From the NCBI GenBank assembly GCA_965222225.1, contig CBDCTK010000002.1, positions 4,448,001 to 4,512,000 on the forward strand: a stretch of 64,000 nucleotides of DNA, in the 5' to 3' direction. Source of the DNA: Candidatus Poribacteria bacterium (lineage in GTDB: Bacteria; Poribacteria; WGA-4E; JAJDTR01). This document shows, one piece after another, positions 7,819-57,340 of the stretch. The notes under the pieces were generated by a model, which saw only the letters and a list, made by a program, of their open reading frames with translations, had not been told where the DNA came from and ran no database searches. Every line of letters starts with the position of its first letter. Position 1 is the first letter of the stretch. A program made the translations under genes and the position numbers.

Positions 7819-8020
7819 AAGCTAGTTTGAATAATATATGGCAAAGCCATTTTTGGTCATTTGTATTACTATATGCCTGATGCCTGTGAATCTCTATCGC
7901 ACGGGATTTTCTATCAATGTGTGGGGGATCTGACAATTCATACGCCTTTGAAGATGAGAAAAGCAGGTGGCTACCTTCGATGGTGCCTTACAAGAAATGG
8001 TGAGCGGTGCCCACCCTACA
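7819..8020. repeat. Degenerate MITE/REP composite with nested left halves of the 36-bp unit
   Basis: TIR-like AAGCTAGTTTGAATAAT then TGGCAAAGCCATTTTTGGTCATTTGT (as at 15323 and 57210); CTCTATCGCACGGGATTTTCTAT at 7892-7914; REP GGTGAGCGGTGCCCACCCTACA at 7999-8020. Confidence 0.7.
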
Positions 8021-14942: not shown

Positions 14943-15284
14943 GTGAATCTTGGGGGCATCATACTCTTCATCAAAGACATGCAGGCTGCTATCGCGTATT
15001 ATCGGGATAGCCTCGGATTGCACCCTGATGTAGAACAGCCGTTTCCGGCTAACAGTTTTTTCCGCTTTAACACCGGGTAGTGTAAACTCTGCCTTCACAA
15101 AGCGGGAAAGCCTAACGGCGGAAGACAAAAGATTGTCTTTCACGTCGAAAGTGTAAACGATGTTCATCGGAACTTGGAAGCTAAGGGGTTGCAATTAAGA
15201 CCATTAAAGAACGAGGATGGTCAAGCAATTTTCGACATTAGGGGCCCCGAAGGAAACCGGATTCGGTTTTGGGGGAACTGCTAA
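14943..15284 (+). pseudogene. VOC/glyoxalase family gene with internal amber stop
   Basis: Manual translation MNLGGIILFIKDMQAAIAYYRDSLGL...FNTG*CKLCLH...IVFHVESVNDVH..L...FDIRGPEGNRI; TAG at 15078-15080. Confidence 0.75.
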
Positions 15285-15413
15285 CCAAGTCTCTCTGACA
15301 CGTTTTTTAACGCTCGCGTTAAGATCCTGTTTGAATAATCGGTGGCAATGCCATTTTTAGTCATTTGTCGGAAGTTTTTTCATGTTTTCATTGTTGGCTG
15401 CTACAAACCTGTA

Positions 15414-15449
15414 GGATCTCTATCGCAGTCGCTATTCGCTCCCTTGATC
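15414..15449 (+). repeat. 36-bp insertion unit U1
   Basis: GGATCTCTATCGCAGTCGCTATTCGCTCCCTTGATC. Confidence 0.85.
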
Positions 15450-15476
15450 CCACGCTGGGGCTTTTAGAGGCTGGTA

Positions 15477-15512
15477 GGATTTCTATCGCGCTCATTATTC
15501 ATTCGCTTGATC
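15477..15512 (+). repeat. 36-bp insertion unit U2, splitting a REP stem
   Basis: GGATTTCTATCGCGCTCATTATTCATTCGCTTGATC between GGCTGGT and GCAGTGCGCACCCTAC. Confidence 0.85.
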
Positions 15513-15574
15513 GCAGTGCGCACCCTACAAACTGTACTTTTCAACCAGGCTCTAAGAGTTTAATTGAATAATAA

Positions 15575-16618
15575 TAGGAGTTACGCAGTTGAGTGAAAAT
15601 AGGTTATAATTTGAGTATGAATCCCCCTAAATATACTGACACTGACTATATTGATTTCTTGGTAGCCGCTCAGAAAAGTTACAGTTGTCTTGAATCGGAA
15701 AAAGTTCAACCCCAAGCTGATAATCCTCCGGCTCACGATTCGATAACACGGCTCTTGCATCGAGAGGAACCCGATACTGGCAAACTGTGGCAAGAATCGA
15801 GAAATCAGGTGAAATTAGAATCCGGAATTTTAGTTATAGATGACTCGACTCTGGATAAACCTTATTCACAAAAGATTGAACTCGTGACAAAACACTGGTC
15901 AGGGAAACACCACCGAGTTGTGAATGGGATTAACTTGGTCACTTTGCTCTGGACGGATGGCGATAGACATATTCCGTGTGATTATCGAATCTATGATAAA
16001 GCCAAAGACGGCTTGACGAAGAATGAGCATTTCCGCGCCATGCTTGAAGAAGCGAAAACACGCGGTTTTGCTCCTGAATGTGTGTGTTTTGATAGTTGGT
16101 ATGCCAGTCTAAAGAATCTAAAAGCGGTGCGAGGTCATGGTTGGAAGTGGCTTACTCGTCTAGCTGCCAACCGACTTGTCAGTAAAGATTATTCCGGTAA
16201 CCGTCCGGTGAGTACGCTTCCGAGTGAATCAACAGGTACAATTGTCCATCTCAAAGGCTATGGATTGATTCGAGTATTTAAGGTTGACACTCCAGAAGGT
16301 GACATTGAATATTGGGCAACGAATGATTTACAGATGGACGAATTGACGCGTCTCAAATATGCCGAATGGTCTTGGACAATAGAAGAATATCATCGCGGGA
16401 TTAAGCAATTTGTTGGCATTGAACGCGCACAAGTGCGCTCTGCTCGCACTCAAAGAAATCATATCGGTTTAGCGCTGAGAGCCTTTCTGAGAATTGAGCA
16501 CTATTGCTATCATACCGGTATCAGTTGGTTTGATGCAAAACTCTCTATTGTCAGAGATGCGGTACGGGCTTATTTGGCACAACCTCTTTATACGCTTCAG
16601 CCAACTGCGTAACTCCTA
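15575..16618 (+). mobile_element. IS701-like insertion sequence, copy 1 (1044 bp)
   Basis: TIRs TAGGAGTTACGCAGTTG / CAACTGCGTAACTCCTA; 5-bp target duplication AATAA (15570-15574 / 16619-16623). Confidence 0.92.
15593..16612 (+). CDS. IS701-family DDE transposase
   Basis: VIDDSTLDKPYS, CFDSWY, W.IEEYHRGIKQ; stop codon lies inside the right TIR. Confidence 0.9.
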   Translation: MKIGYNLSMNPPKYTDTDYIDFLVAAQKSYSCLESEKVQPQADNPPAHDSITRLLHREEPDTGKLWQESRNQVKLESGILVIDDSTLDKPYSQKIELVTKHWSGKHHRVVNGINLVTLLWTDGDRHIPCDYRIYDKAKDGLTKNEHFRAMLEEAKTRGFAPECVCFDSWYASLKNLKAVRGHGWKWLTRLAANRLVSKDYSGNRPVSTLPSESTGTIVHLKGYGLIRVFKVDTPEGDIEYWATNDLQMDELTRLKYAEWSWTIEEYHRGIKQFVGIERAQVRSARTQRNHIGLALRAFLRIEHYCYHTGISWFDAKLSIVRDAVRAYLAQPLYTLQPTA

Positions 16619-16666
16619 AATAAGTGGGAAACCCATCTTTAGTCATTTGAGTTGCTATATACTTGA

Positions 16667-16702
16667 GGAGTTCAATCGCGTTCCCTATTCGGTCACTTGA
16701 TT
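16667..16702 (+). repeat. 36-bp insertion unit U3
   Basis: GGAGTTCAATCGCGTTCCCTATTCGGTCACTTGATT. Confidence 0.75.
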
Positions 16703-16724
16703 GCCTCTGACGTTTTCAAAGGCT

Positions 16725-16746
16725 GGTGCGCATTGCGCACCCTACA
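16725..16746. repeat. Intact GTAG-type REP palindrome
   Basis: GGTGCGCATTGCGCACC-CTACA (GTAG foot on the minus strand). Confidence 0.85.
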
Positions 16747-16997
16747 AGATGTGGACTTGTCTCGCGCTCGCGTAAAGACGCGTAAAGAGTTGTGGGTTCG
16801 ATTCTTTTGCGAATTGTCAAGCCTAGGTGATTTTAAGTGGGAAAGGGCGGGTAAAACATGACGCGGTTAAGCCTTGTTTCATTATCGTGTCTAAGATACC
16901 CCCGGGGATTGTAGGATCGGGTGTGAATTGAAATGCCCGCAGTAAGCAAGGGTGCTTTTAGGCACCTCAGACACTTTGGCTCAGAAGGAATTAGCGG

Positions 16998-23291: not shown

Positions 23292-23325
23292 GCTGGAGAT
23301 AGAAGACCATAGGGGAAATCTCTTA

Positions 23326-23454
23326 GAGCCTGTTTGAAAAGTAGGTAGCAAAGTCATTGTTTGGTCTTTTGAGGCTCAAAATCGTTGGATTTTCAAGGCA
23401 TTTACCCCAAAATAGCCTTCCTCTAAGACGGATTCGGACTTTTCAAACAGGTTC
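23326..23454. mobile_element. 129-bp MITE with IS5-like TIRs
   Basis: GAGCCTGTTTGAAAAGT / ACTTTTCAAACAGGTTC, flanked by TTA on both sides. Confidence 0.88.
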
Positions 23455-23501
23455 TTAGTCGTGGGACTTATGTACTTCTGTTTGGCGCGAAGGATATTAC
23501 G

Positions 23502-40459: not shown

Positions 40460-40576
40460 GAGGACGATTCCGAATATCGTAATGCCAAAGCATATTACGC
40501 AGGTTTCAATACAAAAATTCATCTTCCGTATGGACTGGGAAGAATGGAGACTATGCCCGTATTTTTTGCACATGGA

Positions 40577-40745
40577 GAATCTCTATCGCACTCGTTATTC
40601 ACTTGATTGATCGCCGCCGGGGCTTTTGGAGAGGTTGGTAAGAGCTCTATGGGATTTCTATCGCGGTCACTATCCGTTCCCTTGATCGTTATCCACTCGT
40701 TTGATCGCAGTGCGCACCCTACAAATGTACTTTTCAAATAGGCTC
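40577..40745. repeat. MITE-end/REP composite with units U4 (40577-40612), U5 (40652-40687) and an outer unit split by U5
   Basis: U4 GAATCTCTATCGCACTCGTTATTCACTTGATTGATC; AGAGCTCTAT[U5]GTTATCCACTCGTTTGATC inside REP GGT...GCAGTGCGCACCCTAC; TIR ACTTTTCAAATAGGCTC-TTA. Confidence 0.82.
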
Positions 40746-46774: not shown

Positions 46775-47818
46775 TAGGAGTTACGCAGTTGGCTGAAGCG
46801 TATAAAGAGGTTGTGCCAAATAAGCCCGTACCGCATCTCTGACAATAGAGAGTTTTGCATCAAACCAACTGATACCGGTATGATAGCAATAGTGCTCAAT
46901 TCTCAGAAAGGCTCTCAGCGCTAAACCGATATGATTTCTTTGAGTGCGAGCAGAGCGCACTTGTGCGCGTTCAATGCCAACAAATTGCTTAATCCCGCGA
47001 TGATATTCTTCTATTGTCCAAGACCATTCGGCATATTTGAGACGCGTCAATTCGTCCATCTGTAAATCATTCGTTGCCCAATATTCAATGTCACCTTCTG
47101 GAGTGTCAACCTTAAATACTCGAATCAATCCATAGCCTTTGAGATGGACAATTGTACCTGTTGATTCACTCGGAAGCGTACTCACCGGACGGTTACCGGA
47201 ATAATCTTTACTGACAAGTCGGTTGGCAGCTAGACGAGTAAGCCACTTCCAACCATGACCTCGCACCGCTTTTAGATTCTTTAGACTGGCATACCAACTA
47301 TCAAAACACACACATTCAGGAGCAAAACCGCGTGTTTTCGCTTCTTCAAGCATGGCGCGGAAATGCTCATTCTTCGTCAAGCCGTCTTTGGCTTTATCAT
47401 AGATTCGATAATCACACGGAATATGTCTATCGCCATCCGTCCAGAGCAAAGTGACCAAGTTAATCCCATTCACAACTCGGTGGTGTTTCCCTGACCAGTG
47501 TTTTGTCACGAGTTCAATCTTTTGTGAATAAGGTTTATCCAGAGTCGAGTCATCTATAACTAAAATTCCGGATTCTAATTTCACCTGATTTCTCGATTCT
47601 TGCCACAGTTTGCCAGTATCGGGTTCCTCTCGATGCAAGAGCCGTGTTATCGAATCGTGAGCCGGAGGATTATCAGCTTGGGGTTGAACTTTTTCCGATT
47701 CAAGACAACTGTAACTTTTCTGAGCGGCTACCAAGAAATCAATATAGTCAGTGTCAGTATATTTAGGGGGATTCATACTCAAATTATAACCTATTTTCAC
47801 TCAACTGCGTAACTCCTA
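46775..47818 (-). mobile_element. IS701-like insertion sequence, copy 2 (inverted relative to copy 1)
   Basis: Same TIRs and length; 5-bp target duplication TATAC (46770-46774 / 47819-47823). Confidence 0.92.
46781..47800 (-). CDS. IS701-family DDE transposase
   Basis: Protein identical to 15593-16612 in the ORF track. Confidence 0.9.
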   Translation of the reverse strand: MKIGYNLSMNPPKYTDTDYIDFLVAAQKSYSCLESEKVQPQADNPPAHDSITRLLHREEPDTGKLWQESRNQVKLESGILVIDDSTLDKPYSQKIELVTKHWSGKHHRVVNGINLVTLLWTDGDRHIPCDYRIYDKAKDGLTKNEHFRAMLEEAKTRGFAPECVCFDSWYASLKNLKAVRGHGWKWLTRLAANRLVSKDYSGNRPVSTLPSESTGTIVHLKGYGLIRVFKVDTPEGDIEYWATNDLQMDELTRLKYAEWSWTIEEYHRGIKQFVGIERAQVRSARTQRNHIGLALRAFLRIEHYCYHTGISWFDAKLSIVRDAVRAYLAQPLYTLQPTA

Positions 47819-48030
47819 TATACAACAGAATTTATCCAAGAATAATACCTTATTCACGTAATTTCGTCAAGGGCAATGCAAAGCGTCCTCTACCTCGATT
47901 TTGGTCGAACGTGCAATGATTAGGGCGTGGAGGAAAGAGAGGGGATTGGACGGATGGAAGGATGGAAGAGACGTGGAGACAGAGTTTTCGAGAAGAAACA
48001 CGGATTCCATTGTCTGAACCGCGGATTAAG

Positions 48031-48066
48031 GGATCTCTATCGCACTCACTATCCGTTCGCTTGATT
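48031..48066 (+). repeat. 36-bp insertion unit U6
   Basis: GGATCTCTATCGCACTCACTATCCGTTCGCTTGATT within a run of short GGATT repeats. Confidence 0.85.
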
Positions 48067-48206: not shown

Positions 48207-48390
48207 GGTGGGCAATGCCCACCCTACAAAAGCTCTATCGCACGGGATTTTCTATGGGAATGCTATCGCATTCGCTATTCGCTCATTTGATCCTTCCTTA
48301 ATCAGTCGGTTGATCGGTCGATATTCACTCCCTTGATCTATTCGCTCAGTCGATCCCTCAATCTATATTGTTCGTTTGATTCCAATCTAC
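48207..48390 (+). repeat. REP followed by a nested stack of 36-bp units (full U7 at 48257-48292)
   Basis: GGTGGGCAATGCCCACCCTACA; left halves AGCTCTATCGCAC and GGGATTTTCTAT; U7; right halves ending TTGATC/TCGATC/TTGATT at 48315, 48338, 48355 and 48381. Confidence 0.82.
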
Positions 48391-49959: not shown

Positions 49960-50015
49960 GGTGGGCAGGGAATCTCTATCGCACTCACTGTCCGTTCCTT
50001 TGATCCCACCCTACA
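49960..50015 (+). repeat. REP with 36-bp unit U8 (49970-50005) in its loop
   Basis: GGTGGGCA-GG[GAATCTCTATCGCACTCACTGTCCGTTCCTTTGAT]CCCACCCTACA. Confidence 0.85.
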
Positions 50016-51559: not shown

Positions 51560-53572
51560 TCACGCATGATGACATTTTGAAAGAAGGTGTTTGAGACATT
51601 TGCCAACATGACAACGAAATTCTTCATACTCATTTTTTTTCACTGGCGAAGCACTCGGATCGGCGTGCGAAACAGTGTCTTTGTGACGTCGAACAAATAA
51701 CTGAAGGACTTGATCGTGCGTTTCGCTGGGCACCTTCCGTTCCCTAAGGAATTCACCTACGTTTTTTTTCTTATAGTCTCTTAATGAGCACGGGGCATTC
51801 TTATCCAATAATTGGCAACTGGCGTGAAACTCGTTAAATAAATGGCTAAGCGCAACTGAATATTCCTCTTTTTGCTCACACAAGACTCGCAATCGAATCT
51901 GTTCGATAACATGTGGTTTAGCTATTTTCAAAGTCTGTGCTTTTGTCAATTCGTAATAACCAAGTGGTCTTGATGGCAAGCCTTTCCGTTTGAAAATATC
52001 CATGATTCGTTTCATCGCTGGGTCTTGTTTGAGAAGTTGGGGCAATTTGCTCGGGGCAAACTCAGTCTGACAGAGATACTGTAGCGCGAGACATATATCC
52101 CTTGACGTTAACGGTTTTTTCTGGCGAAGAAATTTCTGAAATTGCTCAGACACATCACTGCATTTCGAGATTAAAACGATAATCGGCTTTGAATAAGCAT
52201 TAACTAACTCGAAATCAAAGCCGTTAGAACTCAGAAAATATTCTCTAAGTCTATCCATGTAGTTGTATTTGGGACGTACTAACATCCTTTGGACGTTTTC
52301 ATCAAATACCCCCTTGAGCCCTTCCATAAAATTTTCTTCATTGAACTGTTCTTGTACGCTCCTTGGCTCGAAATGTTCCCGAAAGTAAGGTGCTATGGGA
52401 AAGCGCTTCAGTTTCTCCAACTGTTCAAAGATGTGCTCAATTTTAACGGCAGGCTTAACGGTAGTTTTGTCCTCTACGTCGTCATCTCGAGATATCATTT
52501 TCAAATTTCTTGTGAGTGCATCTCTATCGCTTTTCTCTTTTAGTCGGAAAATCTTTGTTTTTGGATTGAGTCGAAGTCCTAATTTTTCGTGAAGACAATC
52601 TGAAATACGGGCTGCTAACGGATTAAACAGAGGTCTCAAATCACTATCCTGTTCTTTAAAAGTGATTGATATATATATGTCGTCCACGTAGCGGATTATG
52701 GCATGATCTTGTATTGATTCGTTGCTGCGACAAAGTTCATCATCAAGATATGAATCCCCAAAGGCAAGAAAAAGATATCCGATGAAATCGGAGATAATGT
52801 TGTTGTCTGATTGCGGTATGCCTGAAGTTCCGCACGCCACAAAATCAAAAAAAGAAACAAGCTGACCATATGTTTTCTCGCCAAAGTAAAGTTTTTTCTT
52901 TACACTGTAATTGACGCGAGTTTCAAGTAAATCAAGAAGTCTCGGAATGCTAAGTTCATCGAAAAAGTTTTGTATGTCCAAGCGAATAACAACCTTGCGC
53001 TCTGTGTTTTCGTCTTTTTCCTTTTCCACCTCTTTGCAGAAGTTTTCATAGTGTGGTACGTGATAGATTGGTTCCTTGATGGGCTTCGGCTTTTTAATGA
53101 TGTGTCCTTGTTCGTTGAACTGTAGATTCCCTCCGTAGCCGGCGCGGATTCGATCGTGAGTGCTATAATTTTCTTGCAGATAATCTTTGGAAAGTTCAAT
53201 CAAATAAATTCCCACGGCGTTGTAAAGGACGCGCATAGGGCATGTCATAAACTTGTAACGACGCAGACCAAGATTAGATTTTGGGATAGTGTATGGAACA
53301 ATCGCAAACTCCCTGCTCAAGCCGTAAAACAGGTTATTGTCAACTGTCGTGCTGAAATACCTTTTCGACTTCAACCTGTTGAACGACTTACTCAGATTTT
53401 CGTAGTGAGACATCTCAGGCGTCCGGAAAAATCTATTTGTTTTTTTTCTTTCTAGTTGATACTCCAACAATTCTAAAGCTTGCAGCCAATGACGGTACTT
53501 CAAAAAATGGCTAAATTGGGGCACGTCATATTCGTTGGGGTTCTTTTTCCGTACGACGGTTTTTTTGTTCAT
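51560..53572 (-). CDS. AbiA-like reverse transcriptase with probable C-terminal HEPN domain
   Basis: YTIPKSNLGLR, RLDIQNFFD, GIPQS.NNIISDFIG, IRYVDD, LGLRLNPKT; C-terminal RRHKDTVSH (R-x6-H). Confidence 0.8.
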   Translation of the reverse strand: MNKKTVVRKKNPNEYDVPQFSHFLKYRHWLQALELLEYQLERKKTNRFFRTPEMSHYENLSKSFNRLKSKRYFSTTVDNNLFYGLSREFAIVPYTIPKSNLGLRRYKFMTCPMRVLYNAVGIYLIELSKDYLQENYSTHDRIRAGYGGNLQFNEQGHIIKKPKPIKEPIYHVPHYENFCKEVEKEKDENTERKVVIRLDIQNFFDELSIPRLLDLLETRVNYSVKKKLYFGEKTYGQLVSFFDFVACGTSGIPQSDNNIISDFIGYLFLAFGDSYLDDELCRSNESIQDHAIIRYVDDIYISITFKEQDSDLRPLFNPLAARISDCLHEKLGLRLNPKTKIFRLKEKSDRDALTRNLKMISRDDDVEDKTTVKPAVKIEHIFEQLEKLKRFPIAPYFREHFEPRSVQEQFNEENFMEGLKGVFDENVQRMLVRPKYNYMDRLREYFLSSNGFDFELVNAYSKPIIVLISKCSDVSEQFQKFLRQKKPLTSRDICLALQYLCQTEFAPSKLPQLLKQDPAMKRIMDIFKRKGLPSRPLGYYELTKAQTLKIAKPHVIEQIRLRVLCEQKEEYSVALSHLFNEFHASCQLLDKNAPCSLRDYKKKNVGEFLRERKVPSETHDQVLQLFVRRHKDTVSHADPSASPVKKNEYEEFRCHVGKCLKHLLSKCHHA

Positions 53573-56890: not shown

Positions 56891-56964
56891 TACGCTCTCC
56901 GAGGGGAGGCAAACGGAAATCAGCAGCGAGCGGGAAAAGTAATTTATCAGATTTTCTTGATTTA

Positions 56965-57210
56965 GAGCCTGTTTGAAAAGTGCAGTTTGTAGGGTGCGCA
57001 CTGCGCACCAGCCTCTAAAAGCCCCAGAGGGGCGGAAGGTGTATAGAAACACCAAAACCCCGTGCACCTAAGCCCCAGCGTGGGATCAAGGAAGCGAATA
57101 GCGACTGCGATAGAGATTCTACAGGTATGTAGCAGCCAACAATGAAAACATGAAAAAACTTTTTACAAATGACCAGAAATGGCTTTGCCACCGATTATTC
57201 AACCTGGCTC
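56965..57210. mobile_element. MITE homologous to 15323-15552 (inverted), with intact REP (56989-57009) and unit U9 (57084-57119, minus strand)
   Basis: TIRs GAGCCTGTTTGAAAAGT / ATTATTCAACCTGGCTC, TTA on both sides; two GCCCCAG hairpins. Confidence 0.85.
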
Positions 57211-57340
57211 TTAGTGCAAGAGCAATGTTACAATCCGTTCAGCCTTTTTCCTCAAAGCAACCGGAATCTAGCTTCAAAGGTGTTATTCTACTGTACAACA
57301 GGGAGAAAACCAAGATAAACTGGGCTAAAAGGAGTTTGTC

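Follow-up and report, generated by a model that had tools for sequence, protein, structure and literature searches.

How did a 36-nt unit come to lie inside a GTAG-type REP carried by a MITE at positions 15319-15556 (+ strand, 238 nt) of a 64-kb window from Candidatus Poribacteria, when a sister copy of this MITE has the REP uninterrupted, and what kind of element is the unit? The window, by which we mean the whole stretch of DNA that was analysed, contains the nuo and atp operons as identified with Pfam, and its NuoD matches a protein assigned to Ca. Poribacteria at 96%. The preliminary description had read the unit as an insertion, and we assessed this reading by comparing filled and empty sites in the window and in related genomes.

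The host MITE is a short form with imperfect terminal inverted repeats, and its sister at 56961-57214 (- strand, 254 nt) is a long form. The two inverted copies are homologous, as had been proposed, with both arms in common and 90% agreement in each (151 nt in the left arms, 51 nt in the right arms). Both carry a first 36-nt unit, called U1 in the 15-kb copy (15413-15448, +) and U9 in the 57-kb copy (57085-57120, -); these orthologues differ at 2 of 36 nt, and U1 replaced the CG of a CTGT-CG-CCCC hairpin for which loci L014 and L017 provide the empty alleles. The second unit, U2 (15476-15511, +; its folded strand is the minus strand), separates the left part of the REP (GGCTGGT, 15469-15475, +) from the right part (15512-15528, +), whose first base is the retained target C. 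At this position the 57-kb copy holds a single G (57006), and the flanks of U2, GGCTGGT on one side and CGCAGTGCGCACC on the other, have no direct repeat in common; one base was thus exchanged for 36 nt without target duplication, in agreement with the earlier claim. The missing segment noted earlier in the 15-kb copy corresponds to the 51 nt between two CTGGGGCTT repeats, of which a single one remains (15455-15463, +), and the lengths add up accordingly (254 - 51 + 35 = 238). The short form produced by this loss is seen again in other MITE copies.

Relatives of the host MITE and other features were found in the surroundings. An older, diverged copy of the family adjoins the 15-kb copy (15556-15573 and 16619-16750) and is split by an insertion sequence, a short MITE with the same terminal repeats and neither REP nor unit lies at 23323-23457, and locus L001 (1-600) has one copy only of the family, carrying different units. 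A 1045-bp DDE insertion sequence, presumably IS701-like, is present as two 100% identical inverted copies (15574-16618 and 46775-47819); it is absent from the orthologous nuo locus L001, and in L010 and L115 its relatives have been disrupted by units. The 57-kb MITE is located at the start of hsdR (56920-57067), and since the longest predicted hsdR frame begins inside the MITE, the true start is probably downstream. A small frame after nuoD (14946-15283), whose glyoxalase-like nature is a guess, has a stop at about 15078-15080, whereas the frame stays open in L001.

The locus at 40.6 kb had been described as holding a different unit at the same REP position. The position is indeed the same (GGT|C) and was filled independently, but by two nested units instead of one: the outer unit (40640-40705, +) persists as remnants at 40640-40650 and 40687-40705, split by the inner one at 40651-40686. 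A further, decayed unit is found there in a diverged MITE relative (40576-40611, +).

For the direction of change, the copy alignment suggested in the preliminary description was carried out on the 15 MITE copies recovered with both arms, tabulating empty and filled alleles, and a tree was built from their left arms. The G after GGT is kept in 14 of the 15 copies, the sole exception being the 15-kb copy. It is kept in both other copies that bear U1, namely the 57-kb copy and that of L095, from another genome, which has the same U1, a second site filled and the U2 site empty; L014 and L017 are empty at every unit site. The presence of U1 in L095 and in the 57-kb copy implies that it was already in place when this MITE sub-lineage began to spread, in line with the earlier claim that it predates the duplication of the two copies in the window; U2 and the 51-nt loss are derived. 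Given that the tree of the left arms is poorly resolved, this argument relies on allele counts and the shared U1 and not on branch support.

It is extremely improbable that the empty copies arose by precise deletion of an ancestral unit, or that the unit reflects an artefact of assembly or adapters. A palindrome-completing G is present in the empty allele and absent from the filled one, and no deletion could have restored it; 14 of 15 MITE copies are empty, and the unit, with covarying stems, is present in at least 13 separate assemblies, chromosome-level as well as fragmented; we found no evidence in favour of either idea. At orthologous loci, L060 has a nested unit where L046 has none and L061 an inverted unit where L012 has none (several other orthologous pairs aligned too poorly to be scored), and a transposase gene that is intact twice in the window is unit-interrupted in L010 and L115. 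The missing G, the allele counts, the orthologous loci and the interrupted gene all agree, and these sequence comparisons support the original reading of the 36-nt unit at 15476-15511 as an insertion. Its one-base loss is one case of a general loss of 1-3 nt before a retained C, and the unit is not confined to the host MITE.

The window contains nine matches to the unit pattern with up to three substitutions, compared with none in 30 first-order Markov controls. Beyond those described above, they include a slightly decayed unit at 16666-16701 (+), one in a different repeat family at 48030-48065 (+), one that replaced TG in a GGTGGGCA-G-TGCCCACC REP (49969-50004, +) and a stack of nested units with four right ends and an intact innermost copy at 48256-48291 (48228-48358, +); two nested left ends that lost their right halves lie at 7889-7914 (+). 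A pattern scan of a genome collection returned at least 126 loci in at least 13 genomes, 80 of them with 10-kb flanks, and all the loci listed belong to Ca. Poribacteria. At least 231 distinct exact-pattern copies were collected from at least 13 genomes plus the window. The counts of 170 units in 956 kb of outer flank, a figure biased upward by the choice of loci, and of 9 in the 64-kb window correspond to approximately 140-180 per Mb, or between several hundred and about a thousand in each genome. Most matches (423 of 450, with overlapping loci counted twice) lie outside ORFs of at least 150 aa. Among 230 copies, 160 measure 36 nt, 42 measure 37 nt and 28 have other lengths, some being a 33-nt form. 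Rfam gave no match at the gathering score in the 64-kb window, and searches of plasmids and phages gave only partial matches of 20-21 nt at E values of 5-6. Particular arrangements of units include opposite-strand pairs of short-tailed units of about 33 nt in genomes of 4.7-4.9 Mb (L066, 10001-10077 and 13795-13871, with the units 11 bp apart; L024, 10001-10126) and near-identical units placed head-to-tail in L089, each joined at a regenerated TTG(AT)|C junction.

The folded strand of the unit reads ATCAA-(2 bp)-GA-(2 bp)-GRATA-(2 bp)-GA-(2 bp)-GCGATAG-tail, that is, ATC, an AA-GC loop, a 2-bp stem, a GA-GA step, a second 2-bp stem and a GRATA loop, with a short tail that ends in a pyrimidine. 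The four variable dinucleotides form two complementary pairs: in 231 copies with 924 stem pairs, 768 pairs are Watson-Crick and 124 are G-T on the folded strand, so that 892 are kept, the remainder being 15 G-T pairs on the other strand and 17 mismatches. Shuffling gave a mean of 380 Watson-Crick pairs and a maximum of 421, and slid controls were 15-48% paired as compared with 97.7% for the unit. RNAalifold recovered the same structure unprompted from 64 copies. The invariant letters are partly set by the search pattern, and in the 379 copies obtained by permitting two substitutions their conservation is still 88-99%. The 231 copies comprise 103 different cores; most copies within a genome differ, some types are common to several genomes, and linkage between the outer and the inner stem is loose. 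The minimum-energy fold of the folded strand matches the covarying structure in three of four units as RNA and in none of four as DNA, for which the folding parameters may give tandem GA pairs no credit; hairpins of this kind are stabilised by tandem GA and loop-closing GA pairs. Folding z scores range from -3.0 to +1.5, so the unit is singled out by covariation and not by thermodynamic folding alone.

Junctions were defined from filled and empty sites. An empty homologue was available for 155 of the 231 copies; 127 of these were aligned, 13 could not be, and 15 with odd ends or nesting were set aside. In the 127 pairs the target lost 0 nt in 2 cases, 1 nt in 50, 2 nt in 54, 3 nt in 13 and 4 nt or more in 8, which means that 125 lost at least one base and 117 lost 1-3 nt, and no target duplication was found in such pairs. 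The +1 base of the empty site is C in 111 pairs, G in 11 and T in 5, and the non-C exceptions that were inspected fall within runs of C that allow the anchor to slip. The 5' A of the folded strand abuts a target G exactly (read as C on the opposite strand); the 3' end is also fixed, and it is the 1-3 adjoining target bases that are lost, in numbers that differ at one target, where the same site can lose 1 or 3 bases. The base that follows TTGAT in the 231 copies is C in 195, T in 30 and G in 6. The frequency of T depends on the host (0/46, 1/78, 7/18 and 9/30 in four genomes) and GATC is depleted across the loci (rho 0.63), which indicates that most of these T look like later mutations, as would fit mutation of a methylated GATC. 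Inheritance of the terminal T by lineage was considered and rejected (8 T-T pairs in identical cores against 4.8 expected, p 0.14). GGCC (0.30) is, like GATC, strongly under-represented in all loci, suggesting cytosine methylation or restriction at both motifs.

The targets comprise many REP families, transposase genes and the unit itself, with insertions at several positions within one REP and in both orientations. They fold better than the intergenic background (89 against 497 sites, p 5e-8). Contact between units is common (112 of 201 copies touch another unit), and the TTGAT|C junction, regenerated by insertion, is in turn a target, which accounts for tandem runs and for stacks such as that at 48228-48358. 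One interrupted gene, in L010 (1029-2213), codes for a transposase that we take to be IS630-like and is split by a unit at about 1452-1487. Donors persist: clean excision scars were not found at 8 of 10 hotspots, against 419 intact alleles; the other two hotspots gave scar-like matches, one outside any REP and five not separable from T-to-C changes. Among 398 right ends, 307 are full, 81 are split by another unit and 10 are of other kinds, with no truncation series seen. Two further ideas were discarded: a snap-back origin of the left end (the first three bases do not covary with target positions +1 to +3, p 0.5-1.0) and an autonomous long form (13 orphans among 306 left ends, none opening onto a gene). 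A replichore rule, such as the bias of IS200/IS605 to the lagging-strand template, does not emerge cleanly, the replication strand judged by residual local skew being divided 126 against 70, from non-independent loci and mixed within loci.

A variant subfamily, CTACCGC...TTGCT, is represented by nine full copies in four genomes. Right ends in TTGCT are followed by GG in 13 of 14 cases, compared with a following G in 14 of 368 right ends in TTGAT. The tandem repeats of L050 supply an empty allele for the variant within the same locus, showing the loss of one T. The two changed bases of the element thus go with a GG target, which implies that target choice tracks the element sequence. The new bases could pair with the two target bases on either side of a junction base that bulges out; no equally clean pairing was found for the common form, and no simple rule covers both C and GG targets. 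There are counter-cases, one copy with CTACC and TTGCT followed by C (L072) and two half-variants followed by C (L003); among the 13 GG cases, that of L012 may have matched by chance, and some variant copies may share descent, so that they are not all independent. A second enzyme would also explain the co-variation of two bases between element and target.

Taken as a whole, these results lead us to conclude, with a probability of about 0.93, that the unit is a mobile element, non-autonomous and made of a single hairpin, which measures 36-37 nt (33 nt in some genomes) and inserts independently. It works like the REP and REPIN type of hairpin replicator but cannot be placed among REPs, REPINs, IS200/IS605 derivatives, MITEs or CRISPR/TIGR arrays. 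According to PMC8266576 and PMC3333891, REPs of the E. coli type (group 2, with RAYT/TnpAREP) are likewise 20-40 nt long, have hundreds of intergenic copies and form an imperfect, strand-specific hairpin with an AA-GC mismatch in the lower stem. In contrast, the unit has no 5' GTAG or CGTC tag: its folded strand starts with ATCAA after the target G, GTAG is absent from its 5' foot, and this motif occurs only 3' of the hairpin in a minor variant. Its junction is G|A (195 of 231 copies) and not the C|T or C|A of REPs (C|A is limited to the variant subfamily), its 2-bp stems stand between GA/GA pairs, it inserts into REPs and itself with a loss of 1-3 target nt, and no RAYT gene flanked by it was found in some 1.6 Mb of partly overlapping loci, where the three Y1 genes seen have other REPs around them. 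REPINs are also non-autonomous hairpin replicators inside bacterial genomes, and in PMC3116915 the inverted doublet is the mobile unit, with excisions observed for it and not for singlets; here single units replace 1-3 nt and scars are missing. With IS200/IS605 the unit has in common the absence of target duplication and would share single-strand, hairpin-dependent movement and a target set by the element sequence (PMC8266576); it differs in having one hairpin instead of two ends, a one-base target instead of 4-5 bases, target loss and no donor joints; no orphan end pairs enclosing a gene were found among the 306 left ends, of which 13 are orphans. MITEs, which have terminal inverted repeats and target duplications that the unit lacks, are here a host and not the unit, whose ends do not co-vary with its flanks. 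TTGAT, the target of ISDra2, is here part of the insert. CRISPR or TIGR arrays do not fit copies that are dispersed and whose variable bases pair with each other, and no cas families were found among 56 window proteins or 146 neighbours. We found no description of this repeat in the literature searched, comprising few subscription papers and no supplementary repeat tables (e.g., PMC3733652, PMC6006769), and it is apparently an undescribed micro-element.

How the unit moves is a separate matter, and for the reading that we favour, in which a single-strand element of the copy type is mobilised by an HUH-type nuclease acting in trans and the host does the trimming, we consider the chances evenly balanced. 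A trans-acting Y1- or Rep-like nuclease would bind the folded strand, nick it at G|A and stay on the 5' end, and host synthesis from the free 3' end would displace the strand and regenerate the donor. The bound 5' end would then be joined to the 3'-OH of a target G exposed in extruded single-stranded DNA, a site that basal bases of the element itself would help to select. Host repair would seal the opposite end once 1-3 nt had been trimmed, and replication would fix the insert. Selection for being copied would keep the fold while the stem letters drift. In rolling-circle HUH transfer (IS91/ISCR, Helitrons, relaxase-led integration), copy-out leaves the enzyme-bound 5' end exact, and the other end may be ragged if finished by host repair; such elements measure hundreds to thousands of bases, unlike the 36-nt unit. 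PMC8266576 describes, for TnpAREP and IS200/IS605, strand-specific recognition of an imperfect hairpin, an AA-GC bulge, and cleavage sites that depend on DNA-DNA pairing and that a change in the element can reset, and PMC3333891 proposes rolling-circle-like amplification of BIMEs with 3'-end degradation by host nucleases. HUH chemistry fits the unit on account of the strand-specific hairpin recognition, the AA-GC bulge as in E. coli REPs and the resettable cleavage sites, whereas known HUH/Y1 transposases cause no target loss and cut REPs at CT or CA, as against the loss and GA junction seen here. Three Y1 genes occur in about 1.6 Mb of partly overlapping loci from unit-bearing genomes (RAYT-like; L009, 9190-9702; L050, 17798-18277; L016, 4772-5182, whose frame stops early). 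All three are flanked by host REPs of the CTCC-GGAG and GTAGTAG families, and they are likely partners of those REPs. No convincing cognate enzyme was found among the 146 proteins scanned out of 306 adjacent and about 630 more distant ones, or among recurring clusters of 1305 ORFs, and a motif screen of 5208 ORFs gave only the three Y1 genes and the reverse transcriptase (RT) of the window.

This RT bears on a different and rather unlikely mechanism, in which the unit is a reverse-transcribed micro-element, a bacterial SINE-like patch: an RNA of 36-37 nt cut from read-through transcripts would be copied by a host or mobile RT at a nick or break in a hairpin, with one junction set by one-base target pairing and the other losing 1-3 nt. 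Target-primed retroelements (R2, SINEs) show one exact junction, a small target loss at the other (2 bp for R2-type insertion), no scars and nesting, and the exact and lossy junctions of the unit and its want of scars are alike and would be explained by reverse transcription too; however, the unit has no A-tail, no truncation series and no RT partner that we could find. The RNA fold of the folded strand, which with G-U pairs gives the covarying structure in three of four units, and the more frequent position of this strand as the sense strand of its neighbours (128 against 84) favour an RNA, while the near absence of truncated copies and first three bases that do not mirror the target speak against this mechanism, and the 103 cores among 231 copies argue against one master RNA. 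The only RT in the window and the 80 flanked loci is AbiA-like (51560-53572, -; PADLOC E 4e-76) and lies in a type I restriction-modification island with Mrr-like and IrrE-like genes. It was rejected as the driver on its patchy distribution: of its best 120 relatives, one could be assigned to a closed unit-bearing chromosome, a weak count that covers the longest contigs only. Adenine mutagenesis of the DGR type was also rejected, as invariant A are found on both strands.

Less probable again is some other one-ended integration, either a DDE- or Cas1-like reaction in which the 3'-OH of the TTGAT end attacks N|C, or the action of a small nuclease assisted by host end-joining, with the fold serving as a protein-binding site. 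An attack led by the 3' end of the unfolded strand would fit the junctions equally well, and genes of IS630, IS3 (family labels that we assume) and PD-(D/E)XK types lie near units; against it, the unit has neither terminal inverted repeats nor duplications, and these genes are incidental neighbours, two transposase genes being themselves unit-interrupted. Passive spread, in which a few old insertions travel along as MITEs and REPs duplicate and gene conversion makes them uniform or diverse, did contribute individual copies: U1 travelled with its MITE, one insert is common to two IS copies and the tandem repeats of L055 carry copies. As a general account it is largely refuted and we regard it as improbable, given the many unrelated target families, the several positions per REP, the two orientations, the different losses at one target, the filled and empty MITE copies that are sisters (L029/L017 and L068/L032) and the nested inserts that differ between orthologues.

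The spread of REP-like repeats is still described as poorly understood in PMC8266576, largely because exact filled and empty junctions are hard to obtain. Here hundreds of inserts in repeats of known empty state allow the target base, the loss, the active strand and the tolerated sequence to be read directly, a natural variant links the element sequence to its target, and a defined 36-nt substrate with a predicted cut site becomes available for testing candidate enzymes. We tentatively suggest, as a possibility that falls short of even odds, a new class of bacterial micro-transposon: a 36-nt GA-zipper hairpin, copied by an HUH or RT enzyme, with a self-chosen and retargetable target from which 1-3 bases are deleted, that parasitises every other repeat family and itself. 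Confirmation would probably place it with the smallest DNAs known to insert independently in bacteria and make it a possible lead for sequence-programmable small insertions. For these Poribacteria, the 36-nt units account for much of the tangled intergenic DNA.
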